From NCBI GenBank assembly GCA_016187415.1, contig JACPJT010000007.1:68821-132820 (forward strand): a stretch of 64,000 bases of DNA. Reading direction: 5' to 3'. The notes below the pieces were generated by a model. It had not been told where the DNA came from and did no database searches. It saw only the letters and a program-made list of their open reading frames with translations. This stretch comes from Candidatus Aenigmatarchaeota archaeon (GTDB lineage Archaea; Aenigmatarchaeota; Aenigmatarchaeia; CG10238-14; SCSR01). A program made the translations under genes and the position numbers. Position 1 is the stretch's first letter, and each line of letters opens with the position of its first letter. Below are positions 25,517 through 64,000 of this stretch, piece after piece.

Positions 25517-25517
25517 C

Positions 25518-25808: not shown

Positions 25809-26189
25809 ATGAAAGCAAGTGCTGTCACAGAGGCAATCACCCTTGTAGGCGTGGTAACCGTAAGCGTCATGATGTTTTCCCAGGTGCCGGGCATAATCAC
25901 TGATATGAAGATTGTATTGTCAAAAGAGTCGTCTCTTTCAAAAGTGAAGGAAATATCAAGCCTGATAAGCATAGCCAGCAGTTCTCCGTCCGATATGAAA
26001 ATAGTCTACGACCTGAAGGAAAAGTCAAGCGTGTCATCGAAGGACGGCATACTGACTCTGACAACGTCCAAAGGCACGATTTCGTACAAGACCCTGAGCG
26101 ACCTGAAGGATTTCACAAAAGTTGATGTCGACAAACTTACTATAATTAAAACCATACAAGACGGGAAAGTAACAGTCGAGGTTATTTAA
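25809..26189 (+). CDS. Pilin-like protein (MKA|SAVTEAITLVGVVTVSV)
   Basis: Class III-like N-terminus. Ser-rich beta-type C-terminal domain. Confidence 0.45.
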   Translation: MKASAVTEAITLVGVVTVSVMMFSQVPGIITDMKIVLSKESSLSKVKEISSLISIASSSPSDMKIVYDLKEKSSVSSKDGILTLTTSKGTISYKTLSDLKDFTKVDVDKLTIIKTIQDGKVTVEVI

Positions 26190-27183: not shown

Positions 27184-28232
27184 AAGCGAATGTGGCACTA
27201 GTTGCGCTGGTTTCCATAGCAAGCGTTTTGACAATAGTCGGCGTCTTTTCTTTCAGCATAGCGTATCAAACAGACACGGTTGAAAGGAGCATAAAGGAAC
27301 GCGGGATGATAGAGGTAATAAACCAGGTTGAATTTATCAAAGCGGCATTGCACCATGCGGTAGACTATTCTGTATACCAGTCGGCATACGAACTTTCCAA
27401 ATACGGGGGATACGACAGTTGCACAGTACCAGATGCGGGAGGGTTCAAGACGGATTTGCCGTATTGGAGGATACGTGACGCATGCTCCACGGACCAGTTC
27501 AAGGACAAGCTATCGAAAAGAGTAAATGAATTGTACCAACTCTACCTCAGTGCGATAAACAAGAAACTGGTTGGAGGTAACTTCCAGATACCAGACTATT
27601 CACCGCCCCAGATAAATGTTTTGGAGAATTCGTTGGATATTCTTGCGCAGGCTAAAGATAAAATTAATTTTAAAAGTTCAGATACGGGGCTTTCTGATAA
27701 CGGGGATATAAAAGAAAGTGTGAGAATCGAATTGGGAAAATTATTGTCAACAGGCGATCAGCTGTTCGTCCAGAGGGACGCTGTAGGGGATAAAATAAAT
27801 GGTGCAGAAAGCTCTATGAGCGGCAGTTGCAGGAGCACATATCAGGACGTATGCGGTTCGGCATATGCGGTAGCGATACCACCCTCTCAAGAATGCGTTT
27901 CACAATTTGCGTCTAACGTAAAATCCAGCATCAAGACTTTGGAAACCGAGACACAGGATTTGAAATTAACATTCTCGGATGATGATATCAAGGCAAAATA
28001 CGCAACACCGATAAAAAAGGATCCTGCCATAGCCATAGGCACCTGCAGTTGTTCGGATGAAGGTTGCTCAACATTATACAGAATTACATTCACGTATCAT
28101 TACATAGCCAGTGCAGACATCAAGGCAAGCATATCGGGCGATAAGATATATCCCGTGTTTGACAATGTCGACCAGAAAGCTGGCCTTAGGAATCTGGAAT
28201 TAAATTTCCGCGTCTTTTCTGAAAACAAATAG
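27180..28232 (+). CDS. Larger pilin-like protein, 350 aa (MKA|NVALVALVSIASVLTIVGVF)
   Basis: ATGA overlap with the upstream gene. Several Cys in the extracellular part. Confidence 0.45.
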   Translation: MKANVALVALVSIASVLTIVGVFSFSIAYQTDTVERSIKERGMIEVINQVEFIKAALHHAVDYSVYQSAYELSKYGGYDSCTVPDAGGFKTDLPYWRIRDACSTDQFKDKLSKRVNELYQLYLSAINKKLVGGNFQIPDYSPPQINVLENSLDILAQAKDKINFKSSDTGLSDNGDIKESVRIELGKLLSTGDQLFVQRDAVGDKINGAESSMSGSCRSTYQDVCGSAYAVAIPPSQECVSQFASNVKSSIKTLETETQDLKLTFSDDDIKAKYATPIKKDPAIAIGTCSCSDEGCSTLYRITFTYHYIASADIKASISGDKIYPVFDNVDQKAGLRNLELNFRVFSENK

Positions 28233-28239
28233 TATTTTC

Positions 28240-33933: not shown

Positions 33934-34557
33934 TTACTTAAGCTTAAAGAAAATTACAGCAACTATAAGACTGGGTATCATCACCGACAATAAATAAACC
34001 ATGCCCAATTCCAAGAAAAATCCATCTGGGTAAAGAGTTTTCAGAAAACTGTCTGATGGAAAACTGAAATTGTTTACAAAAGAGATTTTATGGAATAAAA
34101 GAAAGGCTGTCTGAAAATCCAAATAAGCAAATACTGCAATTAGTAATATTACTGAAAAAACAACAGCAGATGCAATTTTCGTCGATTTTATGATGAAATC
34201 TTTTCTGTCTGTTAGAAAGTAAGCGCTGAACATCAACATCGCCAAAGAAATACCGGCTATCGCATTGGAGTTATTTACAATATATCCGACGTCATTCATG
34301 TGGCTTGATTCATTTGCATTCAGAAATTCTAAATTCGAACCAGTCTTAAAAAATTCTATTATTCGATTATTGTAATTTTCCAAATCAGCAGGATTCATAT
34401 GGACATTACTATTTTTTTGCAAAACCAGCCACATACCATAACTAGACGATAAAATAGGAACACTCCACAAAACAAACGACAGGGATAATGATATAATAAA
34501 GACAGCTTTTAATAAAAAATCAAGATGCGAGGTTTCTCTCATAAATATGAAAGCCAC
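33934..34557 (-). CDS. Polytopic membrane protein (207 aa)
   Basis: 5-6 TM, no motifs. Confidence 0.35.
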   Translation of the reverse strand: MAFIFMRETSHLDFLLKAVFIISLSLSFVLWSVPILSSSYGMWLVLQKNSNVHMNPADLENYNNRIIEFFKTGSNLEFLNANESSHMNDVGYIVNNSNAIAGISLAMLMFSAYFLTDRKDFIIKSTKIASAVVFSVILLIAVFAYLDFQTAFLLFHKISFVNNFSFPSDSFLKTLYPDGFFLELGMVYLLSVMIPSLIVAVIFFKLK

Positions 34558-43375: not shown

Positions 43376-44308
43376 ATGAGGAATCTTCTACTATTCTCCC
43401 TGCCGATTTTGATAGTGTTTATCTCTGGCTGCAGCCAGCAGGCGGGGCAAATACAGTACAAAAACGATGCAATAACAATCGAGAATTTCATAATCGATAA
43501 CCGGGCGCCTTACGCTGGCACTTATACGTCTATGGAATTCGATGTTCAGAACAATGCCGATGTTACCGTGAAGAAAGTGATTGTAAACTTTTTTGATTTG
43601 CCTGGATTTACTGTTGCCAACTTGGATTGTGGTCTGCCTACATATCGTGTCAACAAAGACAATGCATACATTTGTCAGTTCGATAAAATCGACCAATTGG
43701 ACAGCAGGCACATTGCAATAAAACTGAAATCAACACAAGTCAAGTCACCAACGCCCTTCACAGCCAGCATATTGGTCAACTATGACCACAACGGAAATAG
43801 GGAAGCTATAATACCAGTTATAGACTCTGCGATTAAAAGGGAGCCGTCATTCAAATTCTCGCAAAGCACGCCGAATTACGGCCCTGTAGTCTTCGATATA
43901 CAGCCCTTGATTGAAAGGGAAGTGAAAGTTGGCAATCAGGTTGTAAAGCAGTATTGGGGTGTAAATGGAAACGAGTTTGTAACAAAATTTGTAATGAATG
44001 AAATCGGCACAGTGAATGACAAGCCGCCATTGAATGTGCCCGGAAAAAATGTGATTTTTTCAACAGTAAATTTGGAGCCGACAAATTGCCCAAGCTTCGA
44101 TACGAACCCCGCAGACACACCATCAGTTCAGGGGAAATACACAGGCACATCCAAGTTCCCAGTCAATAAGACATTCAATACACTGGTCTGCACATTCAAG
44201 CCGACAAGCGCACAAACCGAATTTACAAGCATCTTAAGCGTAAAGTATAGCTACACTTACCAATTCATAAGGAGGGAAAATTTTGTCATACAGCCGCCAT
44301 TGTCGTGA
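43376..44308 (+). CDS. Secreted lipobox protein, tandem paralog 1 (signal ...IVFISGC|SQQ)
   Basis: Lipobox-like Cys follows an h-region. Two beta-rich modules. Confidence 0.45.
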   Translation: MRNLLLFSLPILIVFISGCSQQAGQIQYKNDAITIENFIIDNRAPYAGTYTSMEFDVQNNADVTVKKVIVNFFDLPGFTVANLDCGLPTYRVNKDNAYICQFDKIDQLDSRHIAIKLKSTQVKSPTPFTASILVNYDHNGNREAIIPVIDSAIKREPSFKFSQSTPNYGPVVFDIQPLIEREVKVGNQVVKQYWGVNGNEFVTKFVMNEIGTVNDKPPLNVPGKNVIFSTVNLEPTNCPSFDTNPADTPSVQGKYTGTSKFPVNKTFNTLVCTFKPTSAQTEFTSILSVKYSYTYQFIRRENFVIQPPLS

Positions 44309-45191
44309 AATCCTAATTTTCGGTTCATTAGCTGCAATAATCTTCCTCGCTGGTTGTGTACAGCAACAGACATATACCGCCAACGACGGTTTGACAATTC
44401 AAAAATTCGCACCACAGCTCAATAGAATAGGCGGCAATTCGGACCTGATAATAATCATGCTGATAGAAAACACAGGCGAAAGCAATGCAGAGAAAGTTAA
44501 TGGTGAATTGATAGGTTTAGATGATTGGAAAATTACCGAGGTCAGGACGAAAACAGTCCCAAACATACAAGGAGCCGATCCAGCCCACCAGCTTAAGGGG
44601 GGCCAGGACGTAATCGCATGGAAATTGACATCACCCAAAAATCCATTCGAACAAAAATATGACTTTACAGGAAGATTGTATTTTGAATATAAAACATCGG
44701 TATCCGTTCTGTATAAAGTGTTGAGTAGCAACTATTATCAGACATTGTCAGACGAACAAAAATCAAAAGAGAATCCAGGCATATCCAGCATATCGGTTTC
44801 GTCCGGTCCCATAAGCGTTTCTGTTAAAACACAAGAAACGTTTGCAAACGGCGGCAAGATACCTATCGAGTTTGATATAACTAATGTTGGAAGCGGGGAG
44901 GCATTTACATTGGTAAGTTTACCAGATAGATATAAACCTACTCGTGAAACTTCCGATCAAATAACCAACATACGAGTTTCTGGAGTTACAAATTGTGGTG
45001 ACGATGTTGTAAATCCATTTGGGGTTCTTACAACAGTTAGACTATCAAATGGAAAACAGGGTAAGATTGTCTGCTATGTTGACACAGCTGGTATAGAAAC
45101 AAGTAAGGTATTGCCTATAGATATGGTTTTGGATTACAGTTATGCGGTGGAAAAAACATCTTCCATAACAGTCTCCAGGAGCCTGGGATAG
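44283..45191 (+). CDS. Secreted lipobox protein, tandem paralog 2 (...IFLAGC|VQQ)
   Basis: Shares the LAGC.QQ motif and the NTGE..A...YYQTLS pattern with paralog 3. Confidence 0.45.
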   Translation: MSYSRHCREILIFGSLAAIIFLAGCVQQQTYTANDGLTIQKFAPQLNRIGGNSDLIIIMLIENTGESNAEKVNGELIGLDDWKITEVRTKTVPNIQGADPAHQLKGGQDVIAWKLTSPKNPFEQKYDFTGRLYFEYKTSVSVLYKVLSSNYYQTLSDEQKSKENPGISSISVSSGPISVSVKTQETFANGGKIPIEFDITNVGSGEAFTLVSLPDRYKPTRETSDQITNIRVSGVTNCGDDVVNPFGVLTTVRLSNGKQGKIVCYVDTAGIETSKVLPIDMVLDYSYAVEKTSSITVSRSLG

Positions 45192-45242
45192 CCCGCGCGA
45201 TAACCAATTTATATATTCTCTACCAATTAATTAAAGAGAAAA

Positions 45243-46553
45243 ATGAAACTTAGGAAAGAAATTATACTCCTTTCGGTAATTTCCATTGTATTTCTAGCAG
45301 GTTGCACAGGTTCTTCAACGGCTGGTGGCAGTGCAGGCGTCATAGTAAAGGAATTTTCTGCATCACCACAGTCCGTAGAAAGCGGTACACCGATTACATT
45401 GACATTAACACTTAAGAACACCGGTGAAAATGATGCTACAGGTCTCGCCGCGACATTGTCAGGATTACCAACTGATTTTAGCGCATCGGCGCAAGGATCG
45501 TCAACTGGCATTAATTTATTCGGTGCAAATCCACAATTAGGCACATCGGAAGGACAGGATCAAAATATAATATGGTTAATCACAACGAAAGCCAGAAGTA
45601 CGACAAACACTTATAATGTCGGTTCCAGAATCACATACACATATGCGTCACAGGCCGAAGCTACAATAAGAGTGGTAAATGTAAATTATTATAGGACACT
45701 TTCTTCCTCAAACCAACAGTCGTTGCAACGTGGTGTGATAGCTCAACAGTCACAGAAAGGTCCACTTTCGGTCACATTTACAAGTCCGGCTCCATTAATA
45801 TCTGGTAGTCCAACCATTCCAGTTCAGATAGAAGTACAAAATATAGGGGGTGGTAGGGCCTATACAGGTTCGGATTCTACATCTTTGACTGGCTTGGATA
45901 GAGTAACAGTTTCACTTACATCATCATCTTCAAGCCTAACAAACTGTAATACCCAGATAGTCCTTATAGGCGGTAAGGGCAGGTTGACATGTTATTTGTC
46001 AGTAACAACTAATGATGTTTCCCAATATCCGATAGGAATACAGTTATCTTACAACTATCTTTTGGATGTCTCGACCAGTTTTACATTGATAAAAGCATTT
46101 AGTCCTCCTAGTAGCACGAGTGGTGCATCCGCATCTACACCACCCACGACTACACAATCGTATTGCGATAGTCCACAGCCAGCGACAGTGACTTCAGGTA
46201 CATCAGTAGTGACCCGTCAATTGTCTGCCAATAAACCAACAGAATGTATAAATTTGGCAGTGCAACCGTCTGCTGTTACACCAAGTAAAATACGTATAAC
46301 TCTGGGTGGTATAGGTTGGGACCGGGGATTCCCACAAGATCAGAAATATACACTGAAAAGGGACACTTGTTCCGGTTCTGTTGTCTGTTCGATATCTGCG
46401 TCTCTTGATATAAACGGTAATTCTATTGGAGTAACCACGGATTGTACCGATGCACCTGTCGCAGCAAATTATTGCATTGTTGCAGAAACGGCAAGATGGT
46501 ACAACAGTGGTCAGGCAACATTCACGAGAACAATTGATGTGAGTCTTGTCTAG
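45243..46553 (+). CDS. Secreted lipobox protein, tandem paralog 3 (...VFLAGC|TGSS), Thr/Ser-rich C-terminal extension
   Basis: Carries LTLKNTGENDATG and YYRTLSS. The C-terminus is rich in S/T and Cys. Confidence 0.45.
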   Translation: MKLRKEIILLSVISIVFLAGCTGSSTAGGSAGVIVKEFSASPQSVESGTPITLTLTLKNTGENDATGLAATLSGLPTDFSASAQGSSTGINLFGANPQLGTSEGQDQNIIWLITTKARSTTNTYNVGSRITYTYASQAEATIRVVNVNYYRTLSSSNQQSLQRGVIAQQSQKGPLSVTFTSPAPLISGSPTIPVQIEVQNIGGGRAYTGSDSTSLTGLDRVTVSLTSSSSSLTNCNTQIVLIGGKGRLTCYLSVTTNDVSQYPIGIQLSYNYLLDVSTSFTLIKAFSPPSSTSGASASTPPTTTQSYCDSPQPATVTSGTSVVTRQLSANKPTECINLAVQPSAVTPSKIRITLGGIGWDRGFPQDQKYTLKRDTCSGSVVCSISASLDINGNSIGVTTDCTDAPVAANYCIVAETARWYNSGQATFTRTIDVSLV

Positions 46554-52490: not shown

Positions 52491-53900
52491 CTATTCACTA
52501 AGGTCGACCAACGGTTTGTTGCTCGTTGTATTCACACCGTCGTTCTTGATAACGATATTATGATCGCCAGGGCCGAATCTTGTTGAATTTGTGATGTCTA
52601 TTCTTTGATACGGAATAACGAATCTTATTTTCACCGGTCCGGATTTCAGTTTTACATTATCAAAGTAATTTGTTCCGGGTGAAGAGAGAACTATAGTTTC
52701 ATTGGCTGCGTTGGCTATATTCGGGATTTCTCCAGATGTTGTGATTTTTTTTATCGAGGTTTCGTATAAGAATGCAATTTCAGTGGCTGTCAGCGACCTA
52801 TTCCATATCATAACCTCGTCTATAGTGCCGTTGAAAAAACTTCCAGTACCATCGGTAGATCCGATTACGATGTTGGTTGCGTTAGTCATCATACTACCAG
52901 ATCTTGAGGAAGAACTGACCGATACACCATTTTTATATAGAGTTAATGTGGTTCCGTTATATGTGCATGCAAAATGGATCCATGTATCATTTTCGAAACT
53001 TGTACTTGTACGAGGCTCTCCAACGTTACTCGAATTAGTTATGAAGCACGAAAACCTTGGACTTTCACCGACAGGATTAAGCCTTAACAGATAATCACCA
53101 AGTTTGCTGATAACTCGCCCTTCTGCATTCATATCAGTTCCTTTAACCCACGCCATCATGGTTATTGTATTGGTTATATTGAGAGTACTTGGAGTTCCTA
53201 CGTCTGTGTAATCCCCAACGCCATCATAATTTGTTGCGTTGCCAAAATTCCCTGTTACCCAACTTGGGCATGCGTTATTTGTGAAACATGCAGCCACAGT
53301 CGCATTTTTTAATGTACCGTTGTTCCTATAACCAGAGTAATCGTATGCTGTTGCTATGGAAGTGTTTATATTTCCATCAAACGGTAAAAATAAAACCAAA
53401 TCTCGCGGCTCACCCGGTACAAGATAAATCTGGCCTTTAGGATCCGTCGAAGGTATTACATCAGCTGATAATTGGAAGTTGGAAATATTACCTTCAGCAT
53501 ACCGGTTGAAATATTCCAGAAACGTGGGACTGGTTTCTATTTTCACATCGCCAGAAAAACCATCTAGAATAGTTCTTGTTCGGGGCGTATAGTCCAGATA
53601 AACCCAATCGTTTCCAGGATCCGTTCTCAACACGCCCTCTGTAATCTTAAGATGTATTGTCCTTTTTGATCCCTGTGCTTCCGATGCGACTGCTTTGACT
53701 GCAGAATCTATCAATTGCATGTTTTGCGTAGCTTCGTTGACTATACCGGCGTCTTTTGCCCTGTCGAGCATGGGATTTATGACCACCAGTACAATCGCCA
53801 TCGCCGCAAAGCCGAACGCTATAACCAGCACCATTGATATGAGCGGTGACAATCCTTTCATGGATTTAAATTTGGATTCAGTCGAAATAAAGGCGTTCAT
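52491..53900 (-). CDS. Pilin-like LamG (concanavalin A-like lectin) domain protein
   Basis: Internal start MKG|LSPLISMVLVIAFGFAAMAIVLVV (at 53861). LamG signatures: YDYSGYRNNGTL, DGVGDYTD, W.HFACTYNGTTLTLYKNG, and FNGTIDEVMIWNRSLTATEI. Confidence 0.55.
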   Translation of the reverse strand: MNAFISTESKFKSMKGLSPLISMVLVIAFGFAAMAIVLVVINPMLDRAKDAGIVNEATQNMQLIDSAVKAVASEAQGSKRTIHLKITEGVLRTDPGNDWVYLDYTPRTRTILDGFSGDVKIETSPTFLEYFNRYAEGNISNFQLSADVIPSTDPKGQIYLVPGEPRDLVLFLPFDGNINTSIATAYDYSGYRNNGTLKNATVAACFTNNACPSWVTGNFGNATNYDGVGDYTDVGTPSTLNITNTITMMAWVKGTDMNAEGRVISKLGDYLLRLNPVGESPRFSCFITNSSNVGEPRTSTSFENDTWIHFACTYNGTTLTLYKNGVSVSSSSRSGSMMTNATNIVIGSTDGTGSFFNGTIDEVMIWNRSLTATEIAFLYETSIKKITTSGEIPNIANAANETIVLSSPGTNYFDNVKLKSGPVKIRFVIPYQRIDITNSTRFGPGDHNIVIKNDGVNTTSNKPLVDLSE

Positions 53901-54514
53901 GATATTTTCACATTTTGTTGAAATTTATTTACATGCACGGCGCGCAAGCTAATCAGTCTGATATCAAAGAATCCAGTGTACGTGTCTTTATTGTTTCTTG
54001 TCTGTACCGTAATATTTTCTTCGTAATTCTCGGTTGGCAAGGTCACAGTCAGGTTGTAAGTCTGGCCGTTTGTGAATGTAAAATTATTGATCCAGATGCC
54101 GCTATCATTCAATAGTGTGGAATTTGTCTGTACAACAGACGTGTTCAGTTTGATGGTAACGTTTAGGTTTGTCTTTTCCAGAAAGTTGAAAATTGTTATG
54201 TTCATTGTCTGGTTTGTCGAGTTTGCAAGCACACCAACATATAACGCACTGAAATCCAGTGAATGCCGGTTGCTCCCAGTTCTGGTGAAATTCAGAAAAT
54301 CTATGGAGTGATCCAGTATGGTCTGCGGATTTGTTATCGACGTTTGAATTATTTCCTTTATCTCATTGTTCGTGTTTGCAAATACAGAATCTTCCAGCGA
54401 CACATCCAAAATATCCCTTTCAGTGGAAATCTGGGATATTATTGAATAAGCTTTCAGTGCAACGAGTGCTCCTATGATGATGACTGCAGTCAGTAAAAGC
54501 ACCTGTGCCTTCAT
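53897..54514 (-). CDS. Pilin-like protein (MKA|QVLLLTAVIIIGALVAL)
   Basis: 4-nt overlap with neighbours on both sides. N-glycosylation sequon-rich. Confidence 0.45.
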   Translation of the reverse strand: MKAQVLLLTAVIIIGALVALKAYSIISQISTERDILDVSLEDSVFANTNNEIKEIIQTSITNPQTILDHSIDFLNFTRTGSNRHSLDFSALYVGVLANSTNQTMNITIFNFLEKTNLNVTIKLNTSVVQTNSTLLNDSGIWINNFTFTNGQTYNLTVTLPTENYEENITVQTRNNKDTYTGFFDIRLISLRAVHVNKFQQNVKIS

Positions 54515-54909
54515 TCAAATCCCCACACATGAACTCTGATTTCTTTCGGAGTATAGTTGCCGATGTCACCAACGATGTAGTAGCTGACGCCCACTATGTC
54601 TGCCGCCTGATCGGTGACCTCGGCAGTCAGATTGTTAAATGATTTATTGTAAATTGCAACATTCAACTGGAGAGTCACAGGCAGGAACCCAGCCAGATCA
54701 CTTTTAATTCCAGTTGCGTTGTTGTTCAATACTTGGTCCCTCAAAGACCCTTTGGCTCCCAACGTGTCCAATGCTTTGTACACATCCGTCTTAATATTTG
54801 CCCTGTCTATTTCCGTGTTTCTTTGCGGTGTCATGAAAAGCAAAAAGAAAAATGTGACTATCATTACGATTGCAACCGCTGCTTCAATTGTGTAATATGT
54901 GCCCTTCAT
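54511..54909 (-). CDS. Pilin-like protein (MKG|TYYTIEAAVAIVMIVTFFF)
   Basis: Class III-like N-terminus. 132 aa. Confidence 0.5.
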   Translation of the reverse strand: MKGTYYTIEAAVAIVMIVTFFFLLFMTPQRNTEIDRANIKTDVYKALDTLGAKGSLRDQVLNNNATGIKSDLAGFLPVTLQLNVAIYNKSFNNLTAEVTDQAADIVGVSYYIVGDIGNYTPKEIRVHVWGFE

Positions 54910-56174
54910 TTTTGTGTAACCTCGACCCTAAAATCAAAGTCATTGCCTAAAATCGCTTTTACCTCTTTGTAATCACGCGAAGTTAAATTCTGCAACTTTG
55001 CCGCTGATATAGCTGTCACATTCTCTGCCGGGAATGACGTTACTGTTAGAAGTGTGGCATTCGCGACTGAAGCAATTTCAGCTGTTGTCAAAGTTTTATT
55101 ATAGATTCTGACATCATCTATTGTTCCGTTGAAATATTCAGTTGGAGAGATTCTTGTTCCTATATTTGCCGTACCACTCCCTGTATTTATTGAAAACCCT
55201 CTTGTATCGAGCAATACACCATCCAAATATGTGGACGCACTAGTTCCATCAAATGTTACCAGGACATGATGCCACTTCCCATCGTTAACTGTGGCTGTTA
55301 CAGTGTATTGTGGTGATCCCCATGAAGAAACAAAAATCGCGGCGCCCGACACACCGACTGTAAATGCTTCACCAGTGGCGGTATTGCCATACGAAACTAT
55401 TTCACCCAATCCTGACATTGTTGTGTTCACCCAAGCCGCAACAGTTCTTGGCGTAGTCCCTATCGGTAAGTTTGTTGTACCACCCGTTATACTAACGTAG
55501 TCGTCTAAACCATCGAACTTTAAGCAGCTGCCAGACTTGCAATTAGTTCCGTTGAACCACCCCGATGAAGAATTGAAATCAAAATTGGTCAAAGTTCCGT
55601 TATTCTGATAGCCGGAAGAATCCTTAGCCACAGTGCCGCCCGCCTCATCAAATTTCCAATATCCCTCGCGTGTTATATTGTGGTTTGGCGCGCTTGTGTT
55701 AGTGTTGTTTATGGAATACACGTAAACTTTCTTATTTTCATTGGCAGAGATGTTTACAATGAAGCTTACTATGGACGTGTTCAGCCACTGCCCGCTGCAA
55801 AATTCTTGATAAGAAATTTTTGATGGCAATTCATTGAATTGCTGGTCATAAACCCTGACTGTATTGTTCCACGACATTAATTTGTTGCATAGGTCATCGA
55901 ATGCCACGCTTAGAGAAACAATCTCATTCACCCTGTTGGTCCCGTTAGTTTCCTGCAAGAGAAGAGGTATTCTGTATAAATCCGTGGTCACTCTTTCGTT
56001 GGTTGGGATGCCGCTGCTGCCGAAAAGTATGTCGAATAAACTTTTCGTTTTGTCCCTGAGTTCGATAATCGTCACGGATTCGGGTGTTCGTGTGAAATAA
56101 TTTATGGTGGACACCAGCACAAGTGCCACAAAAATTAAGAAGACGGATATTGCAACTATGAATGAAATGTCCAT
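54906..56174 (-). CDS. LamG (concanavalin A-like lectin) domain surface protein
   Basis: Carries GYWKFDEAGGTVAKDSSGYQNNGTL, CLKFDGLDDYV, WHHVLVTFDGTSASTYLDG, and FNGTIDDVRIYNKTLTTAEI. N-terminal signal anchor. Confidence 0.55.
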   Translation of the reverse strand: MDISFIVAISVFLIFVALVLVSTINYFTRTPESVTIIELRDKTKSLFDILFGSSGIPTNERVTTDLYRIPLLLQETNGTNRVNEIVSLSVAFDDLCNKLMSWNNTVRVYDQQFNELPSKISYQEFCSGQWLNTSIVSFIVNISANENKKVYVYSINNTNTSAPNHNITREGYWKFDEAGGTVAKDSSGYQNNGTLTNFDFNSSSGWFNGTNCKSGSCLKFDGLDDYVSITGGTTNLPIGTTPRTVAAWVNTTMSGLGEIVSYGNTATGEAFTVGVSGAAIFVSSWGSPQYTVTATVNDGKWHHVLVTFDGTSASTYLDGVLLDTRGFSINTGSGTANIGTRISPTEYFNGTIDDVRIYNKTLTTAEIASVANATLLTVTSFPAENVTAISAAKLQNLTSRDYKEVKAILGNDFDFRVEVTQK

Positions 56175-56182
56175 AAATATAC

Positions 56183-58039
56183 TTATTCTCTAATAATATT
56201 TCTGCTTAGCTTGGTCCTGACTATGATTGCAATTATGATGACAATTGCCGTAATAGCCGCCAACACGGTTATTAGTATAATATAGTCGTTTGTCAAGGTA
56301 AGTGAAATTACAGGGAGTGTAATACCGCTTGTTTGGGTTGTCTTTTCATTCTCTATGCCAGTTATGCCTGTCGACGGATTGCCGGTGCTTGAACTAGATC
56401 CGCTATTTACAGTAGCATTATTAGACGGGCTGCTGCTGGCCGATGAAGAAGCCCCGGCAAGATTGACTACACTGATGTTCTTGGATTCCACATCTATATT
56501 TCCCGCTTTGTCCTCAGCCGATATGCTAAGAGTGTATCTGCCATCATTCAGTTGTCTGGAATTGAAACTGGTCGAACATAAAAAGCTTGAGGGCGTCTGG
56601 GGAGTGCATGTCATATTTCCAGCGAAGGAACTGAGAATAAAGCCAACTCTGCTTTGATTCAGATTAACGTCGATTATACTAGCTGTTATTGTAAAATCTC
56701 CGCTGACATCCGAAACAGGTTCTGTAATTGTCACTTTCGGTTTTGTATTATCGATGACAGCTGTAATAGTTGAAAAGATGTCGGAGTTAAGATTGTTTAT
56801 AGCCCTAGCTCTTATTGTATAACCGCCGTCAGCGAAAGTGATTGTATCAAGCGGATATGAGCAACTGGTGAAATTTATATCGCATGTCATATTCTTAGTT
56901 ATATTATTTCCAGGACTTTCCACAGACAATCCTACATAGTTAACAACGCCTGTATTTGCAAGAGTTGACTGGACAAGTGCAGTGCCGCCTACAACAGCAT
57001 TATTTTTGGGTTGGGTGATGGAGATGAACGGTTGCGAGTTGATGGTCCTGATGGTGACATTTGCGGACTTGGAGTTCCCGGCGTTGTCCGTCACGGTAAA
57101 CACGATTGTATGATTTCCGTCCTGTAAACTGGATGTTGGTAGCACGGCGCTGCAAGTTGAATTCTGTCTAGTGCCGGTGCATCCCAGCGAACCCGACATG
57201 CTTTCTACGTTGTATAGGACTTTAGCAAGATTCACACCAGAATAATAATCACTGACATTTGATGTCAGTTGCGCATTGCCGCTTAGTACCGTGGGTGACG
57301 GAGAGATGATTTTGATATCAGGAATTTCATTGTCGACCATCACATTAATGTTGGTCGATGCATTATTGTTTACATTGTCAGAAGCGTTTACATACAATGT
57401 CAATGTTTGATTGTTTGAAAAAATTGTAGTGTCCAGATATTTTTGGAAGCTGTTCATGCTTACATTGTTGATGGTGTTCCATTGGGAATTATCCAAGGAA
57501 TATTTAACAGTATTATTATTCACGCCCGAAGCGGCATCGGTTACTGTTATGGAGATTGTTTGATTGCCGCTGACATAGCTGTTATTGACAGGGCTTGAGA
57601 ACGAGATTACAGGAGGGTTCCTGTCCAAGGTAAATATTAGCGGGCTGGTTGAATTGCCATCATAGCCCGTTACACCGTTTGTGTCATTCGCCTGGAAATA
57701 AAACAATTCAATCGTGTCGGATCCGGCAATAGCAAATGATATAGTCTTACTGCATTTCCATTCATTGGTGGTATTCGCACACGGCATGGTATAGTTGTCC
57801 CAGCTATCCCCTTGTTGATAAGCATTCTGCGATATTATATACAGCAAAACCGAGCCGGCATTCAGACTGTTCTCTGTGATGTTGATCGAAAGCGTCTTCG
57901 TGCCGCCGCCTATGTAAACATTATTGCTTGGTTGGGGATCATGAAGCAGGGGTGTAGCATTGACCATGTTTGAAAACAATATGCTCGAAAAAAGGAAGAC
58001 AATCACCAAACACGACAATTTCATATAAGTTATTTGCAA
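56183..58039 (-). CDS. Large surface protein with repeated Ig-like modules, Ser-rich stalk and C-terminal TM anchor
   Basis: Sec-type signal. Repeated V..D.(A/Y)SGVN modules. SSSASSSPS...TGNPSTG linker followed by a TM and a basic tail. Confidence 0.5.
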   Translation of the reverse strand: MQITYMKLSCLVIVFLFSSILFSNMVNATPLLHDPQPSNNVYIGGGTKTLSINITENSLNAGSVLLYIISQNAYQQGDSWDNYTMPCANTTNEWKCSKTISFAIAGSDTIELFYFQANDTNGVTGYDGNSTSPLIFTLDRNPPVISFSSPVNNSYVSGNQTISITVTDAASGVNNNTVKYSLDNSQWNTINNVSMNSFQKYLDTTIFSNNQTLTLYVNASDNVNNNASTNINVMVDNEIPDIKIISPSPTVLSGNAQLTSNVSDYYSGVNLAKVLYNVESMSGSLGCTGTRQNSTCSAVLPTSSLQDGNHTIVFTVTDNAGNSKSANVTIRTINSQPFISITQPKNNAVVGGTALVQSTLANTGVVNYVGLSVESPGNNITKNMTCDINFTSCSYPLDTITFADGGYTIRARAINNLNSDIFSTITAVIDNTKPKVTITEPVSDVSGDFTITASIIDVNLNQSRVGFILSSFAGNMTCTPQTPSSFLCSTSFNSRQLNDGRYTLSISAEDKAGNIDVESKNISVVNLAGASSSASSSPSNNATVNSGSSSSTGNPSTGITGIENEKTTQTSGITLPVISLTLTNDYIILITVLAAITAIVIIIAIIVRTKLSRNIIRE

Positions 58040-58050
58040 TTGTGAATAAA

Positions 58051-58947
58051 TTACTTCCAGACACAGATCCTGACTGTGGAAACCTTTAGCGTGCCGTCTG
58101 GATTCTGGATCAATCGCGGCTCCTCATAACATGCTATATTATTGGCCGTCGTTTCTGTGGTCTTCTGCGTGCCGACCGTCTGTTTTACTGTAAACGTGGT
58201 TGAGTTGGTCCATGTTACGCTGGTTGTGGGGTCTGTCACGTTGGCAATGACTTGGTAAGGACCTATAGAGGATGGTGCAGTAAAGTTGCACGTATAGCCG
58301 CCAGTTGAATTAGTCGCAGTTGAGCATACAAGAGTGGAATTGACATATATGTTGACATCCGACGGATCGGCAGAAGTGTCTACTGCAGTGCCGTCTGATC
58401 TTGTCGCCACTCCCTGCAGGCCAACGGACTCATTCCAGATTGGCTGGGTATTATTCAGAATCATAGTTATGGTGACGTTGAATGATTCTTGGACGCACAC
58501 TTGATTGGTGTAATATCCGCATGCTCCGATATGCGTATCGTTCTGTTGATAGAACGACAAGGCGCATGTCTCCCTTGATAAGCAAGACGCTCTTATGTTG
58601 GTTACAATGGGATTACTGGCCGTTTTTGCGCACACGACATCATCATAATAATATGATGACGCTGCATGGGAATTTGCCGTCTGATACATGGAAACAAGCC
58701 GGCCTTCACCGGCGTTGCACGAGTATGTCCTAACTGTAGCGGACGTTATTTCTGTGCAGCAGATTTTGGTGGTATATTCAGAATCGCAACTGCCGACATG
58801 CGAATTGTTCTGTTGGTACACGTTGAACACACAGGTTTCTCCCCCATTGCACGTCGTCCTGAATGTGCATGTCGGTATCGCCTCGGATCCGACTGCCATT
58901 GTCAGCGAGAAAAAGAAGAAAATCAGGAGCATAAAGTAAGCTTTCAT
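58051..58947 (-). CDS. Secreted Cys-rich protein with three internal Cys-motif repeats
   Basis: Signal peptide. Motif C...(F/M)YQ(Q/T)N.(S/T)H.G.C repeated three times. Confidence 0.4.
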   Translation of the reverse strand: MKAYFMLLIFFFFSLTMAVGSEAIPTCTFRTTCNGGETCVFNVYQQNNSHVGSCDSEYTTKICCTEITSATVRTYSCNAGEGRLVSMYQTANSHAASSYYYDDVVCAKTASNPIVTNIRASCLSRETCALSFYQQNDTHIGACGYYTNQVCVQESFNVTITMILNNTQPIWNESVGLQGVATRSDGTAVDTSADPSDVNIYVNSTLVCSTATNSTGGYTCNFTAPSSIGPYQVIANVTDPTTSVTWTNSTTFTVKQTVGTQKTTETTANNIACYEEPRLIQNPDGTLKVSTVRICVWK

Positions 58948-59007
58948 AAAATTTAATTACCGTCAGACGAAATAAGTTTATAAATCCGCAATCCAAACAA
59001 TTGTTAA

Positions 59008-59601
59008 ATGGTTATTAAAAAAACTATAGGCATTGCAGGAGTTTTTCTTATAGGCATCGTGCTCGGTATCGTGATAAGTTCATTGTCACCGCTCAACTTA
59101 ACTACGCTGGTCAATGGCGACGTTTCATCGAAAGTAAAAAGTCTTTACGAACTTGTCAATCCCGGAGTTAGTGTAAGCGTTGTCAAGATAGACGACGTAA
59201 ACGGGATGTATAAAGTCCTTTTCAAGGCCGTTGACGTATCGGGCGGCGTAACTTATCGGGAAACTTTCATCACAAAAGACGGCAAACTTCTTACAGAAAA
59301 TATGGTTCAGGTGGATCCTTCCATATCTCAGTTGAATAAGACCCATAATTTTGTGGATTGCCTCGCGACTAAAGATGTCAAGGTAGCAGGCATTGCCAAT
59401 GATACGGTCACATTGATGCAGTTTAACGCTCTTGGCGGCTCTTATGCGACAAAATTATATCTCAGTTGCGACGGCGGGCAGGTGCAGCAATGTGTCAACA
59501 GCGGCATAACTCAGGTGCCAGCGGTAATTTACAACAGTAAGATATATGCGGGTGTCCAGACAATCCAGTTCTTGGGTAACCTGACCGGGTGCACTTTCTA
59601 A
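59008..59601 (+). CDS. Membrane-anchored extracytoplasmic protein, possibly thioredoxin-fold (thiol-disulfide oxidoreductase-like)
   Basis: Signal anchor. Cys pairs (VDCLATKD; CDGGQVQQC). C-terminal QVPAVIY resembles the cis-Pro region of Trx/Grx folds. Weak. Confidence 0.25.
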   Translation: MVIKKTIGIAGVFLIGIVLGIVISSLSPLNLTTLVNGDVSSKVKSLYELVNPGVSVSVVKIDDVNGMYKVLFKAVDVSGGVTYRETFITKDGKLLTENMVQVDPSISQLNKTHNFVDCLATKDVKVAGIANDTVTLMQFNALGGSYATKLYLSCDGGQVQQCVNSGITQVPAVIYNSKIYAGVQTIQFLGNLTGCTF

Positions 59602-59738
59602 GTGAACTCACTGCACACCAATTCTCAAACGCGTGATCACAGCAATCATGCATATCAGAAGAAAATAGCATTTAAATTCAGCAAATGCGATATATTAAAT
59701 AACTGCTCTTTAAGGGTAGTTTGAATCGATATGCATAA

Positions 59739-59975
59739 ATGGTTAGCAAAGAGAGCCGTCTCATGAAAAACAACTTTAGAGAGAGAATATTGGAATTATT
59801 AAAATCCAGGCCGGACGGTCTGACGATTTTGGACATATCAATACAATTGCGCGCCAACCGCAACACGATCACAAAATACATCTATGAGCTTTCCGGCGCA
59901 GGCGTGATTAATCAGCGAAGAATAGGCGTTGCAAAGCTCTGCTCGCTTTCAAAATATGCTCGGAGGGATAAATGA
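59739..59975 (+). CDS. Small winged-helix transcriptional regulator
   Basis: 78-aa wHTH (ILELLKSRPDGLTILDISIQLRANRNTITKYIYELSGAGVI). Its stop overlaps the start of the giant ORF (ATGA). Confidence 0.55.
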   Translation: MVSKESRLMKNNFRERILELLKSRPDGLTILDISIQLRANRNTITKYIYELSGAGVINQRRIGVAKLCSLSKYARRDK

Positions 59976-62900
59976 TGAGGAAATTGTTTATAGTCTCATT
60001 TTCGATTGCATTCATGATATCTTTAAATGCCGTTGTAGCTGCGAATGTCCAGTCTCATCCGTTATCGCAATTATATCCTTTCGACGTCAACCTCAATGTC
60101 ACTGGCGTGAACATAACCAATGTATCCTATGTATTTTTCGGGAACAATTCTGTTGATACCTATCTTTACCGTTCTGGGACGAACACACTTCAGACCGCCA
60201 GCAATCTGGTGGTCACAGGCGGGTGGATCAATTCCACAAGCATCAACGCATCGTCGCTGTTGAATTCGCAGAATATAATTTCGGCAAGCTGGGTCAATGC
60301 GACTAACTTGAATGCCACTAATAACGCTACAATAGGAGGATATGTCGGCGTCGGGATCGCATTGCCGCAATCCAAGCTGCATGTCCAAGGCGCATCAACA
60401 ACGTTGCTGAATGTAAGCAATTCCACTACATCATATCTGCTGATCGACGATTCAAATCAGATTGTCAATTTCTTCGCGCCGATAACCCAGACGGAAGGCA
60501 AGGTGAACATAGGAGGACCTGGCAGCATAATTTCAGATACGCCCGGTTCAAACCAACTCTTGACTTTTGACAGTTTCTTCGGCTTCAGGCTTGGCGCAGA
60601 CCAGATAACTTTGAATCTTGAAGTCGAGAATGGAGGCTGGATATCCCCTCCAATCATGTCGTTTAACAGGCAAGGACAAGGAGTAGGCATCAACGTCTTC
60701 ACCCCAACTAGCGCCTATCTCGATGTCAACACTTCTGCAACAGCAAAACCTGCGCTAATAGTAAGAGGCAGCGCAGCATCCACTTCCAATATCACAGAAT
60801 GGAGGGACGGCGGCAACAACAAGCTGGTGAGCATAGACAATCAAGGATCGTTATTGGTTGGAAACGGCACAACAGGATTGTTCGCAAATGCGTCATCAGG
60901 CAAGGTCGGGATAGGGATACTGACGCCGACTACAAAATTGGATGTTGTCGGGCAGATAAACGCCACAAAAATTACTGTGAATGGTTCCGATGTTGTTTCA
61001 ATCGCAAATTCGACAGCAGGCAGCAACGGTCTTGTCGGGTACTGGACATTTGACGAGGGTGCTGGGAGCAACGTTTATGACGCTTCCGGTTATGACGATA
61101 CGGGCGTACTGGTGAACATGAACATTACAGGCAATGCAACAAGCGGTTGGAATGTCACCGGCTGCAAGTCTGGCGGATGCATGAATTTTGACGGAATTAA
61201 TGATTATATTAACGTCACGGATAATCCAGTTCTAAATATTTCGGGTTCGATTACGCTTTCAGCTTGGGTAAAAATTGGGGTCGGTTCAGGCGGCGGAATG
61301 ATACTGGCCAAGCAACAGGACTTGGCAGGCACAGCAGACGACAGCGGATATTTTCTATCTGGCGCTAGTTCACCAAGATTTTTAATCGACAACGCCGGCA
61401 CAACTAGCGATATATTCGGCACTACCGATTTGAGGGACAACAAGTGGCATTTGTTGACAGGGACTTACGATTATTCAACAGGCATCACAAGAGTCTATGT
61501 TGACGGAAAGCAGGAAAATTCAGGCACATTCTCCACCACGATAGGCTTGATAAACAAGAGTTTCATAATCGGCGACAGGGCGCAATTGGATTCGCATTTC
61601 AACGGAACCATCGACGAAGCCAAGATATACAACAGGGCGCTGTCTTCAGACGAAATAAGGGCGGAGTTTATTGCAGGCAGTGGCGGGCAGGTTATTTTGT
61701 CCGCGAAGAATCTGGTTGTTGGCAACTGGGTTAATACATCCAACATCAACGTCAGCTCTACCTTCAACGCGCCGAACATTGTCGCAGGCGGCGGCTGGAT
61801 AAACGGGACGAATTTTAATGCATCCAGTACTATTTACGGCACCAACTTGATATCATACGGCTGGGTGAACACGTCTGCATTGAATATTACAGGAACTAAT
61901 GCAGCTGTCACCCCGTTGACAGTGCAGGCAAAATCAGGCCAGACAGCAAACATAACAATGGTGCAAAACGCTTCAGGATTTCCGTTTATGTGGGTGAACT
62001 CGTCAGGCAGCCTGAATCTGCAGCAGCCATCAGACAGCATCCCGAGTTTTTCAGCATACGGTTATGATGGTCGTGTTGTCACACAGTTTTATTGGAACGC
62101 CGGAGGCGGCAATTTAATGTATTGGCAGGCACCTGGTTCGAATCTTCAAATAAGTGCGGGAGGTGCTATAAATATCTTACCCGTCGACACACTAACTATC
62201 ACGGGCTTGGATTCCACGCATGGCAATAATGTAAGGCTTGTCGTCAAGGGCACAACAGACCAGACAGGTAATCTGACGGAATGGCGAGATTCCGGCGCAA
62301 ATAAGTTGGCGTCTGTCAGTTCCAAGGGCGACCTCTTGATAGGAAACAATACAATTGGGTTATACGCCAATGCGACGACAGCCAACGTTGGCATCGGAAC
62401 CACATCCATCGGCAACTACAAGCTGAACGTCATCGGCGACATAAACGCCTCATGGGGCAACTTCACCAATCTCAATATCTCAAGCACATTCAACGCTCCC
62501 AACGTAGTGTCGGCAGGAGGATGGATAAATGCAAGCAATGTGAATGCGACAAATGCAGTCTATGCAACGAACGGCACATTCTACAGTTCTATAATACAAA
62601 AAGCTACATCATCCCCAGCAATCATAGGCTCCGTCAGCGATACAAGAATCAATTCTTCATACAGCGTATACGTCTCCGGCAAATACGCCTACGTCACTTC
62701 CTATAACAACAAAAGTCTAAGCGTCATTGACATCTCCGACCCAACATCACCGAATATAGCGGGCTCCATAAGCGACGGTCGCATAGGAAACGCACTGGCA
62801 GTTCAGGTCTCCGGCAAATACGCCTACGTCACAGACAACGGCTTTAATTTCACAGTGATTGATGTCTCCAACCCGTCCAATCCAACTTTCATCAGCTCTA

Positions 62901-64000
62901 TTAAAGACACAACCAATCTCGGCGTTGGTTATTCGATATACGTCTCCGGCAAATACGCCTACGTCCCAGCTACTATATCAAACAGATTCACAATCATTGA
63001 CATCTCCGACCCTTCCTCGCCAACCGTCGTGGGGTCGCTTAACGACAACAGGCTTTCGCACATTGAGCAAGCTTATATCGTCGGCAAATACGCCTACGTC
63101 ACTGGTTGGGGCAACAATAGTGTCAGCGTAGTGGATATGTCAAATCCAACATCGCCCGCCATCGTAGGCTCGGTGGAAAACAGCACTTATCTTACACAGG
63201 TGGATGGGATATACATCTCCGGCAAATACGCCTACGTCACCTCCTATAACGGAGGATCAAGTTATTTCACAATCATCAATGTTTCGAATCCAACTTCGCC
63301 CACCATTGTAAGCGCAGTCACGGACTCGACCAAGTTCAATTATCTTCCAAATGTCCAAGTCTCCGGCAAATACGCCTACGTCGTATCAAATTTGTATAAT
63401 GGGTTGACAGTGATTGATGTTTCCAACGCATCATCTCCAACCATTGTCGGCACAGTCAGCGACGGCACGAATTTATTAAGTTCCTTTAATATCTACGTCT
63501 CCGGCAAATACGCCTACGTCGTAGGCAATGGCAATGCTGCCCGTCTTACTGTAATTGATATCGGCGGCATTGATTCTTCATCCGCAAACATAGGAGACTT
63601 GTCAGCTTCGACAATAGACGTCACAGACAATTTGGATGTTGGAAACAATCTTTATGTCCGTAGCGGCATTAATGTGGGTCCTGGCGGGATTAGAACAGAC
63701 GGACCAGTAAGCCTAACCAACAATACTTTTGTTACAACCGAGTCTGGAAGAATTGGAGTAGGAACAAACACCACTGGCAACTATAAACTGAATGTGATAG
63801 GAGACATCAATGCGACTTGGCTCAACGCGACTAATCTCAATACGACAGGCACGTCATTCGTGAACAATCTGCAATCTTATAATTGGCTCAACGCCACCAA
63901 CCTGAACGCATCTGGCTGGACGAATACAACGAACTTGAATGTCTCCAGCAACGCTTATGTCAACCATTCGTTGTGCGTAGGAAATATATGCAATACAACA
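59972..64000 (+). CDS. Giant secreted surface protein (partial, continues beyond window): Sec signal, beta-rich Asn/Ser/Thr region, LamG domain, LVIVD-type beta-propeller repeats
   Basis: Hand translation from ATG 59972 is stop-free to 64000 (more than 1340 aa). LamG signatures: GYWTFDEGAGSNVYDASGYDDTG, MNFDGINDY, KWHLLTGTYDYSTGITRVYVDGK, and FNGTIDEAKIYNRALSSDEI. There are seven or more 45-48-aa repeats of YVSGKYAYV(T/V)...(F/L)(T/S)VIDVSNP(T/S)SP.IVGS. Confidence 0.6.
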   Translation, partial: MMRKLFIVSFSIAFMISLNAVVAANVQSHPLSQLYPFDVNLNVTGVNITNVSYVFFGNNSVDTYLYRSGTNTLQTASNLVVTGGWINSTSINASSLLNSQNIISASWVNATNLNATNNATIGGYVGVGIALPQSKLHVQGASTTLLNVSNSTTSYLLIDDSNQIVNFFAPITQTEGKVNIGGPGSIISDTPGSNQLLTFDSFFGFRLGADQITLNLEVENGGWISPPIMSFNRQGQGVGINVFTPTSAYLDVNTSATAKPALIVRGSAASTSNITEWRDGGNNKLVSIDNQGSLLVGNGTTGLFANASSGKVGIGILTPTTKLDVVGQINATKITVNGSDVVSIANSTAGSNGLVGYWTFDEGAGSNVYDASGYDDTGVLVNMNITGNATSGWNVTGCKSGGCMNFDGINDYINVTDNPVLNISGSITLSAWVKIGVGSGGGMILAKQQDLAGTADDSGYFLSGASSPRFLIDNAGTTSDIFGTTDLRDNKWHLLTGTYDYSTGITRVYVDGKQENSGTFSTTIGLINKSFIIGDRAQLDSHFNGTIDEAKIYNRALSSDEIRAEFIAGSGGQVILSAKNLVVGNWVNTSNINVSSTFNAPNIVAGGGWINGTNFNASSTIYGTNLISYGWVNTSALNITGTNAAVTPLTVQAKSGQTANITMVQNASGFPFMWVNSSGSLNLQQPSDSIPSFSAYGYDGRVVTQFYWNAGGGNLMYWQAPGSNLQISAGGAINILPVDTLTITGLDSTHGNNVRLVVKGTTDQTGNLTEWRDSGANKLASVSSKGDLLIGNNTIGLYANATTANVGIGTTSIGNYKLNVIGDINASWGNFTNLNISSTFNAPNVVSAGGWINASNVNATNAVYATNGTFYSSIIQKATSSPAIIGSVSDTRINSSYSVYVSGKYAYVTSYNNKSLSVIDISDPTSPNIAGSISDGRIGNALAVQVSGKYAYVTDNGFNFTVIDVSNPSNPTFISSIKDTTNLGVGYSIYVSGKYAYVPATISNRFTIIDISDPSSPTVVGSLNDNRLSHIEQAYIVGKYAYVTGWGNNSVSVVDMSNPTSPAIVGSVENSTYLTQVDGIYISGKYAYVTSYNGGSSYFTIINVSNPTSPTIVSAVTDSTKFNYLPNVQVSGKYAYVVSNLYNGLTVIDVSNASSPTIVGTVSDGTNLLSSFNIYVSGKYAYVVGNGNAARLTVIDIGGIDSSSANIGDLSASTIDVTDNLDVGNNLYVRSGINVGPGGIRTDGPVSLTNNTFVTTESGRIGVGTNTTGNYKLNVIGDINATWLNATNLNTTGTSFVNNLQSYNWLNATNLNASGWTNTTNLNVSSNAYVNHSLCVGNICNTT
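62678..63520. repeat. Seven in-frame copies of nucleotide-perfect 18-mer ggcaaatacgcctacgtc (spacing 135-144 nt) marking LVIVD repeat cores
   Basis: Copies at 62678, 62813, 62948, 63083, 63221, 63365 and 63503. Flanking codons diverge. Confidence 0.85.

Follow-up and report, generated by a model that had tools for sequence, protein, structure and literature searches.

A Conserved Cassette of Pilin-like and LamG Proteins in Candidatus Aenigmarchaeota: A Possible Adhesion Module of a Type IV Pilus

A 64-kb stretch of DNA (hereafter the window), which is part of a 212-kb contig from a genome of Candidatus Aenigmarchaeota (DPANN), contains at 52491-58947 six consecutive minus-strand genes, termed here P1 to P6, of which P3 to P6 encode pilin-like proteins and of which P3 and P6 carry, in addition, a LamG module. 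With a probability that we put at roughly 0.55, this is a minor-pilin set that is equipped with two lectin heads and whose assembly machinery is encoded elsewhere: an adhesion module of a type IV pilus (T4P). The initial annotation of this DNA had proposed such a lectin on a pilus, and that proposal is supported in part: the LamG modules, the class III-type N-termini of P4-P6, the combination of a helix with a β fold, and the absence of a linked ATPase. What does not fit is P3, which has no K-G leader.

The Six Genes

The list of open reading frames (ORFs) confirms the six consecutive minus-strand ORFs, all of them where the initial annotation had placed them. With the candidate promoter, and in the order of transcription, they are as follows:

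58977-58984, minus strand: TATA-box-like TTTATAAA, read from the sequence; it precedes the P1 ATG by about 33 nt and is a candidate promoter of the operon
58051-58947, minus strand: P1, secreted Cys-rich protein, 298 amino acids (aa), first gene of the operon
56183-58039, minus strand: P2, surface-anchored immunoglobulin (Ig)-repeat protein, 618 aa (613 aa if its start is ATG 58024)
54906-56174, minus strand: P3, leaderless pilin-like LamG protein, 422 aa
54511-54909, minus strand: P4, small pilin-like protein, 132 aa
53897-54514, minus strand: P5, small pilin-like protein, 205 aa
52491-53861, minus strand: P6, modular pilin-like LamG protein, 456 aa (ORF listed as 52491-53900, 469 aa)

The earlier descriptions of the products also agree with what was found here: P1 is a Cys-rich secreted protein (16 Cys and a signal-like N-terminus); Pfam and the sequence give P2 its Ig repeats, Ser-rich stalk, and transmembrane (TM) anchor; P4 and P5 are short pilin-like proteins with a conserved K-G/A and a hydrophobic helix; and P6 has a class III-like N-terminus in which K-G is conserved directly before the hydrophobic stretch. 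The 4-nt start/stop overlaps that had been attributed to these genes exist at P3/P4 and P4/P5 (ATGA) and not at the other junctions. An overlap between P5 and P6 needs an upstream ATG that no homologue supports: the P6 start at MKG (window position 53861) is the one used in the NCBI protein (100% identical over 456 aa) and in 47 homologues, so that the P5/P6 gap is 35 nt. The gap between P2 and P3 is 8 nt, and that between P1 and P2 is 11 nt, or 26 nt if P2 starts at ATG 58024, which is probably its true start and which matches the 613-aa call of P2 in a related contig (L019).

The TATA-like TTTATAAA upstream of P1, together with the 234 nt that separate P6 from the next gene, makes it plausible that P1-P6 form one transcription unit. 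A promoter and terminator scan was uninformative, being of the sigma-70 type only, while the source organism is an archaeon.

Conservation of the Cassette

The best matches to these proteins are in metagenome-assembled genomes of Candidatus Aenigmarchaeota/Aenigmatarchaeota. The order P1-P6 recurs, at 35-73% identity, in at least 10 other Aenigmarchaeota genomes or contigs (8 species-level genomes plus several metagenome contigs), and this recurrence places the arrangement beyond chance. The core of the cassette is P3-P4-P5-P6, the P3 equivalent being without detectable LamG in two distant lineages. The flanks vary among relatives, with a divergent 197-aa gene usually upstream.

The claim that the locus has no ATPase of its own extends to the relatives, since in none of the related loci examined is there an ATPase or TadC gene less than 10 kb from the cassette. 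Likewise, none of 80 loci with relatives of the window ATPase (see below) has cassette genes nearby; TadC adjoins the ATPase in 29 of the 29 long related loci. One 769-kb contig of a relative carries both the ATPase orthologue and the cassette, at a distance of about 200 kb from each other.

Pilin-like N-Termini and LamG Modules

A prepilin-type leader (charged residues, K/R-G/A, then at least about 20 hydrophobic residues) is present in P4, P5, and P6, where the class III motifs were judged by eye and with our own regular expression. These three N-termini therefore appear, from their sequences, to differ from ordinary Sec signal peptides. The bacterial N-methylation motif (IPR012902) was not detected, there being no N_methyl match in Pfam or NCBIfam, and Glu5 is absent from P3, P5, and P6.

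The N-terminus of P6 reads MKG-LSPLISMVLVI, and that of its family MKG-(L/V/I)-S-P-(L/V)-I; in a 48-sequence alignment, Lys2, Ser5, and Pro6 are each conserved at 90% or more, and the Pro at position 30 is invariant. Profile searches bear out the LamG assignments made earlier, with matches to Pfam Laminin_G_3 above the Pfam thresholds in both P6 (2.7e-28) and P3 (7.9e-24). The predicted structure of the 52491 ORF, obtained with AlphaFold2 (AF2) and the family alignment (pLDDT 81), also agrees with the LamG-behind-a-pilin-helix layout suggested initially: a 54-residue helix (6-59) and a β domain (strands 66-160), which together have the "lollipop" shape of a pilin, are followed by LamG and by a C-terminal β domain. 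P6 thus has a pilin module, a linker, and a concanavalin A (ConA)-like/LamG module, in that order. Fold matches of the model include receptor-binding LamG modules and PilC; the top fold match is the carbohydrate-binding domain of an arabinanase.

The P6 N-module is not confined to LamG proteins. A phmmer search with the first 140 residues against 1.84 billion representatives returned 256 proteins, in which the module is N-terminal and which range from about 150 aa (pilin-sized) to 3085 aa. Among 59 sampled carriers, 28 match DUF7289, 22 have LamG (one of them in six copies), and 3 have DUF2341. Two distant P6-like proteins, P0061 (archaeal, solitary) and P0067 (in a bacterial context), revealed nothing further about machinery.

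Other P6 relatives were seen in unusual settings. Just downstream of the cassette in one lineage (L002:11465-14100, the same as L014:12516-15151), a 264-aa gene that shares 43% identity with the N-terminal half of P6 directly adjoins a 619-aa NosD/beta-helix/LamG gene; this could be a split gene or a P6-type scaffold with another head. In a more distant Aenigmatarchaeota genome (L006:10001-11443 and L007:276-1718), a solitary P6 homologue with 34% identity is located in the conserved ribosomal-protein/SecY cluster without P3-P5.

The window P6 lacks 99 bp (33 codons), in-frame, at 53492/53493, with an ATGG microhomology at the junction. A Logan contig from SRR12113383 contains the missing 99 bp (L019:4973-5071) and otherwise matches the window at 100% identity throughout its 6.5 kb; the 33 codons are also present in 47 of 47 aligned homologues. 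A low-confidence stretch of the AF2 model (111-125) falls at this junction. Either the deletion is real and marks a strain variant, or it arose in assembly.

P4, the best-conserved protein of the cassette, begins with MKG followed by TYYTIEAAVAIV (MKG-TYYTIE...). K-G, Y6, and E9 are invariant in a 4-sequence alignment, E9 is also invariant in a 38-member alignment, and orthologues keep M..KG-x-x-Y-x-x-E, with the conserved Glu at +6, near the start of the helix. The family has 76 members of 72-144 aa, nearly all of about 130; DUF7288 is matched by 9 of 38 (best 2.4e-6) and DUF7262 by 13 of 38, and the family profile found nothing significant in the PDB. P5 begins with MKA-QVLLLTAVIII, and its orthologues keep K-(G/A)-Q before the hydrophobic helix; it has no Pfam, NCBIfam, or PDB match and is very rich in sequons (NxS/T), with 5.4 per 100 aa. 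In a distant genome (L005), the leaders of P4 and P5 are longer (MARLRYSKG and MANSKG), and K-G still lies directly before the hydrophobic stretch. That this position is kept despite the change in leader length is what would be expected of a class III cleavage site and not of a Sec signal.

P3 comprises an N-terminal hydrophobic helix that starts from M-D, a β sandwich (about 60-165) with two invariant Cys, LamG (about 170-360), and a short conserved C-terminal segment. Its AF2 model (pLDDT 79) has helices at 3-29 and 34-50, which make up a kinked 50-residue helix, and then the β sandwich and LamG. In 26 of 26 family members, the hydrophobic helix begins at once after M-(D/E/N/S), and an upstream start is impossible, so there is nothing to cleave. 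DUF2341 is matched by 6 of the 26 at E values up to 0.5 (best 0.013); in addition, there is a transitive link, in that the profile of the P3 sandwich matches the protein P0413 in the region where DUF2341 scores 6.6e-4. A P3-like protein has a faint match to DUF7287.

When the P4, P5, and P6 families are compared with hhalign, only leader and helix align, at low probability, and homology between P3 and P6 is confined to LamG. P3-P6 are thus four separate families and not paralogues.

Variable LamG Heads

Conservation across the cassette is highest in the small proteins and lowest in the LamG cores. Within both the P3 and the P6 families, the N- and C-terminal parts are well conserved, and the core (residues ~220-340 of P6) varies more than any other segment. 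When pairs of P6 proteins with N-domains at least 75% identical are considered, 60% have cores with less than 40% identity (median 29%), as against 70% for the C-domain; half of the cores (37 of 74) are singletons at 45% identity. The core of the window P6 has its nearest relative (50% identity) in a P3-family core of another genome and is at most 34% identical to the cores of its own orthologues. As for the core of the window P3, its nearest relative among cassette-family proteins (40%) is a P6-family protein, apparently of that same other genome. These cross-scaffold relationships argue that heads have been replaced, and, on this sequence evidence, the scaffolds of P3 and P6 appear to have swapped LamG cores.

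Proposed Mechanism and Alternatives

The reading of the cassette as a minor-pilin set draws on archaeal and bacterial precedents (PMC4858521, PMC5498576, PMC9934059, PMC8179133, PMC11623550). In archaea, ATPase/TadC modules serve pilin sets whose genes lie in other parts of the genome (PMC4858521). DPANN have expanded complements of LamG proteins, some of them linked to T4P loci (PMC5498576). Bacteria have modular minor pilins that contain a ConA-like lectin module and that join small minor pilins in tip complexes (PMC9934059, PMC8179133), and in an ultrasmall episymbiont, lectin-like minor pilins mediate host binding (PMC11623550).

On these grounds, the following sequence of events is proposed. 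P4, P5, and P6 would each carry a short leader of class III type (M..K-G/A), to be removed by a prepilin peptidase encoded elsewhere. A T4P ATPase/TadC pair encoded apart from the cassette would then extract P4-P6 from the membrane, and P3, which starts at its hydrophobic helix, would join them unprocessed. As a complex of minor pilins, P3-P6 would prime or cap a filament of small PilA-like pilins and expose two LamG (concanavalin-like) modules able to bind glycans on a host cell or surface, the LamG cores serving as exchangeable specificity determinants on conserved scaffolds. P1 (secreted and disulfide-rich) and P2 (with Ig repeats and a C-terminal anchor) would be accessory surface proteins made with the complex. 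We infer leader cleavage, filament assembly, tip position, glycan binding, and the choice of ATPase.

The only candidate for this ATPase/TadC pair in the window is at 17.5-22 kb:

17533-19770, plus strand: T2SSE-type ATPase, 745 aa (T2SSE 3e-16)
19771-20064, plus strand: small PilA-like pilin with the pilin-like N-terminus MRAVAVPYII
20101-22062, plus strand: TadC-like polytopic protein, 653 aa, with a faint T2SSF match
22412-28232, plus strand: pilin-like genes of the ATPase locus, with N-termini of K/R-A/G plus a hydrophobic stretch

The last of these entries comprises a Cys-rich pilin-like protein of 565 aa, two small pilins (24161-24442 and 25518-25784), and a group of four pilin-like ORFs (25809-28232); the small pilins at 19771, 24161, and 25518 have the N-termini (R/K)AVAV.... 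As a whole (17533-28232), the region looks like a complete T4P locus, with its ATPase and TadC-like genes 31 kb from the cassette. Its pilin genes are interrupted by an MNT/HEPN-like (nucleotidyltransferase/HEPN-like) pair (24564-25516). Similar nucleotidyltransferase genes flank duplicated P6 genes in another genome (L004).

Several observations weigh against a filament that includes all four pilin-like proteins and is built by this machinery. The class III leader motif (K-G) is absent from P3 in all 26 of its family members. BLASTP detected no similarity between P3-P6 and the pilin-like proteins of the 17.5-30 kb locus, and no prepilin peptidase was found in the 64-kb window, where nine polytopic membrane ORFs are without an A24 match and no membrane protein has a convincing GxGD. 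The family links of the window proteins are near or under the thresholds: the N-terminus of P6 matches DUF7289 with E 5e-6 and 26.6 bits, just below the Pfam threshold of 27; P4 scores 13.6 bits against DUF7288, for which the threshold is likewise 27, and this match is insignificant alone; and the DUF2341 signal in P3 (residues 105-182, E = 0.1) is weak and, alone, also insignificant. Finally, sequons occur at 3.0-5.4 per 100 aa in the six cassette proteins and the adjacent giant ORF (52491-64000), in contrast to 0-0.3 per 100 aa in the pilin-like and secreted proteins of 22412-30228, five of which have none in 1372 residues. In cytoplasmic proteins of the window, the density is 0-1.6 per 100 aa. 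The high density in the cassette proteins fits surface exposure; the contrast suggests that the cassette and the pilins of the ATPase locus may belong to different structures rather than to one filament.

A role for P3-P6 as surface lectins without a filament is a serious alternative, although one to which we give clearly less weight. The helices of P3-P6 would serve as membrane anchors, or the proteins would make up a pseudopilus-like or bindosome-like assembly that holds LamG on a short stalk beside P2, with no long filament. The seemingly unprocessed anchor of P3, the constant separation of the cassette from an ATPase, the C-terminal anchor and probable co-transcription of P2, and the sequon contrast would all be accounted for in this way. 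Moreover, class III signal peptides reportedly occur on non-filament archaeal surface proteins too (Szabo et al. 2007). Against this alternative stand the constant order of the four different pilin-like subunits, their close translational coupling, and the presence of the P6 N-module on pilin-sized proteins of 150 aa as well; even a pseudopilus would need T4P machinery. Further from the T4P, the N-termini could be Sec signals or anchors of ordinary secreted carbohydrate-binding proteins, with LamG domains as carbohydrate-binding modules for polymer capture or scavenging, in line with the usual annotation of DPANN LamG proteins; this might be thought from the Sec-like signals on P1 and P2, from the top fold match (the arabinanase domain), and from the description of DPANN LamG proteins as Sec-exported adhesion proteins (PMC9563170, PMC7414124). 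This we consider unlikely because of the position of the conserved motif, with K-G before the hydrophobic stretch instead of an A-x-A site after it, and because the hydrophobic stretch runs on into a continuous 54-residue helix with an invariant Pro; the links to DUF7289 and DUF7288 also speak against it. A glycoside-hydrolase role was rejected since Pfam and NCBIfam reveal no catalytic domain anywhere in the operon, which is a further difficulty for polymer scavenging.

It is most improbable that the operon encodes a tafi-like fimbria built by donor-strand exchange without type IV machinery, in which a LamG protein would be at the tip (like TafC), other proteins would be adapters, and P2 would be a TafF-like terminator. 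The NCBIfam search of the cassette proteins gave sub-threshold matches only, the most relevant being TafC (NF052521) to P3 (1.2e-8) and P6 (3e-7). TafC is an archaeal fimbrial tip subunit with LamG, and TafF is C-terminally anchored (PMC11821415), as is P2. However, the TafC scores of 34.5 and 29.9 bits are far under the cutoff of 410 and concern the LamG region only, none of the six proteins has a twin-arginine motif, and the predicted N-termini are long helices and not donor strands; on these three counts the candidate was rejected. Nor does the operon contain a signal peptidase I gene.

Comparison with Known Systems

If P3-P6 are indeed minor pilins with lectin heads, the closest bacterial parallel is the PilA-PilB-PilC tip complex of Streptococcus sanguinis (PDB 7oa7/7oa8; PMC9934059, PMC8179133). 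As in PilC, a ConA-like lectin is grafted behind a pilin module, and as in the PilABC set, small non-modular minor pilins stand alongside two bulky modular subunits; pilins with PF13385 are among the commonest bacterial modular pilin architectures (PMC9934059, PMC8179133). The pilin modules of the cassette are not homologous to the bacterial ones, however: an archaeal N-terminus of DUF7289 type takes the place of the N-methylation motif found in bacteria. Also unlike the PilABC set, the cassette is apart from assembly genes, and one of its LamG proteins is leaderless.

Makarova, Koonin, and Albers (2016, PMC4858521) described, in clade-1 archaeal pilus loci, two large DUF2341 proteins, predicted by analogy with PilY1 to be tip adhesins, together with at least five minor pilins. 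The cassette resembles these loci (Methanococci/Methanobacteria/Thermococci, Epd-type) in that small proteins of class III type flank two large ones that look like adhesins, and the P3 sandwich is weakly, below threshold, like the DUF2341 adhesins of the arCOG03508 type. It differs from them in that it is outside any ATPase/TadC/EppA locus, belongs to a DPANN lineage, and has as heads PF13385 LamG modules with apparently exchanged cores.

A further likeness is to the haloarchaeal families DUF7287, DUF7288, and DUF7289 (plus DUF7262), which the P6 N-module and the P4 family match, the window proteins being at or below the curated cutoffs. The consecutive numbering of DUF7287/7288/7289 suggests, we presume, that these are neighbouring genes of one operon. 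A literature search on DUF7287-7289 returned nothing, and the families are without a described function.

Two other systems are comparable in part. Nanosynbacter lyticus TM7x (Saccharibacteria) is, like the source of the window, an ultrasmall organism of the host-dependent type; its large minor pilins PilX1 and PilX2, which are implicated in host binding, end in lectin-like domains of the jelly-roll or propeller kind, and it has several pilin loci, between which minor pilins are possibly shared (PMC11623550). Unlike the cassette, TM7x has bacterial T4aP-like machinery and pilins and has been studied by experimental genetics, and the homology is only at the level of fold class. In the haloarchaeal Tat-fimbriae (PMC11821415; NF052521), TafC is likewise an archaeal filament subunit with a laminin-G-like tip domain, and is minor (about 1 per 100 major subunits), but it is exported via the Tat pathway, assembles by donor-strand exchange, and has a β-sandwich N-domain, so that only the LamG region is shared with the window proteins.

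Modular minor pilins bearing lectins and accessory adhesins of archaeal T4P are thus already known, and the proteins themselves are in databases as "LamG domain-containing" or "hypothetical". The literature searched contained no fixed Aenigmarchaeota cassette of four pilin-like families, no DUF7289-type pilin module carrying LamG, no leaderless second scaffold, and no LamG core exchange.

Accessory and Neighbouring Genes

All 16 Cys of P1 are invariant across nine orthologues. Behind the signal-like segment, the protein has three repeats of about 40 aa with the motif C..E.C...(Y/F)Q.N(N/D)(S/T)H(V/A)G.C (also written C..E.C..YQxxN(S/T)H(V/A)GxC), an Ig-like middle part, and a conserved C-terminal CYEEPR..QNPDG..VRICVWK. 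A weak BIg21 match is its sole Pfam signal; there is no NCBIfam match, and a profile search of the PDB with the P1 family gave nothing significant. P1 is syntenic with the cassette in L001, L002, and L008-L015. In L004, there is a 616-aa CARDB-containing relative of P1 with the same N-terminal repeats and the C-terminal CYE.P..QNPDG..VRICVWK.

P2 matches Pfam Big_13 (1.6e-12) and Big_7 (1.8e-9) and has a Sec-type signal, the Ser-rich stalk, and a C-terminal hydrophobic TM anchor followed by the basic tail RTKLSR. It is present in most relatives and absent in one lineage (L002/L014).

Next to P1 is a divergent gene:

59008-59601, plus strand: B197, N-terminally membrane-anchored protein of 197 aa with 4 Cys

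B197 has no Pfam match. Almost all relatives have it beside the cassette (synteny in L001, L008-L013, and L015); given this kept position, it may be a functional part of the module. Further along the plus strand, a giant ORF of at least 1342 aa (59972-64000, running off the end of the window) has a signal-like N-terminus, a Laminin_G_3 match (9e-28), and six LVIVD repeats (1.8e-54), making it a third LamG surface protein beside the cassette; it is preceded by a small winged helix-turn-helix gene (59739-59975).

Elsewhere in the window, a minus-strand gene (33934-34557) encodes a membrane protein that matches Lit, the bacterial lipoprotein intramolecular transacylase (PF07314, 8.8e-15), and three consecutive plus-strand ORFs (43376-46553) have lipobox-like N-termini (..FISGC, ..FLAGC, and ..FLAGC). 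Taken jointly, the two findings are a hint that this archaeon processes lipoproteins. On the minus strand, 13640-15410 encodes three consecutive small polytopic membrane proteins (222, 181, and 182 aa) with 5-6 predicted TM segments and no Pfam match, of which the last two are paralogue-like (MATFFEIAILKMQALGFFSFLLPF and ..IFQIVVERLLGIGFYNFLLPF).

Significance

How DPANN archaea recognize and attach to their hosts is largely obscure, and most of the lineages, Aenigmarchaeota included, are uncultured. The usual view of their LamG proteins is that of generic adhesins secreted via Sec; in the present case, one widespread subfamily at least appears to be pilin-based and is encoded in a fixed four-gene cassette, with lectin cores that vary far faster than their scaffolds. 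A more speculative idea, which we hold to be rather doubtful, is that host specificity resides in the LamG cores of P3 and P6, which would be exchangeable cassettes: the conserved pilin-like scaffolds would gain lectin heads by recombination, including swaps between the two genes, and the repertoire of heads would set which glycans of the host envelope can be grasped. If so, head swapping would be an archaeal counterpart of the swapping of receptor-binding domains in phage tail fibres. If the cassette does encode the adhesion module of a T4P, it would provide concrete proteins for tests of host specificity and would extend the bacterial principle of the "modular pilin" to the archaea.

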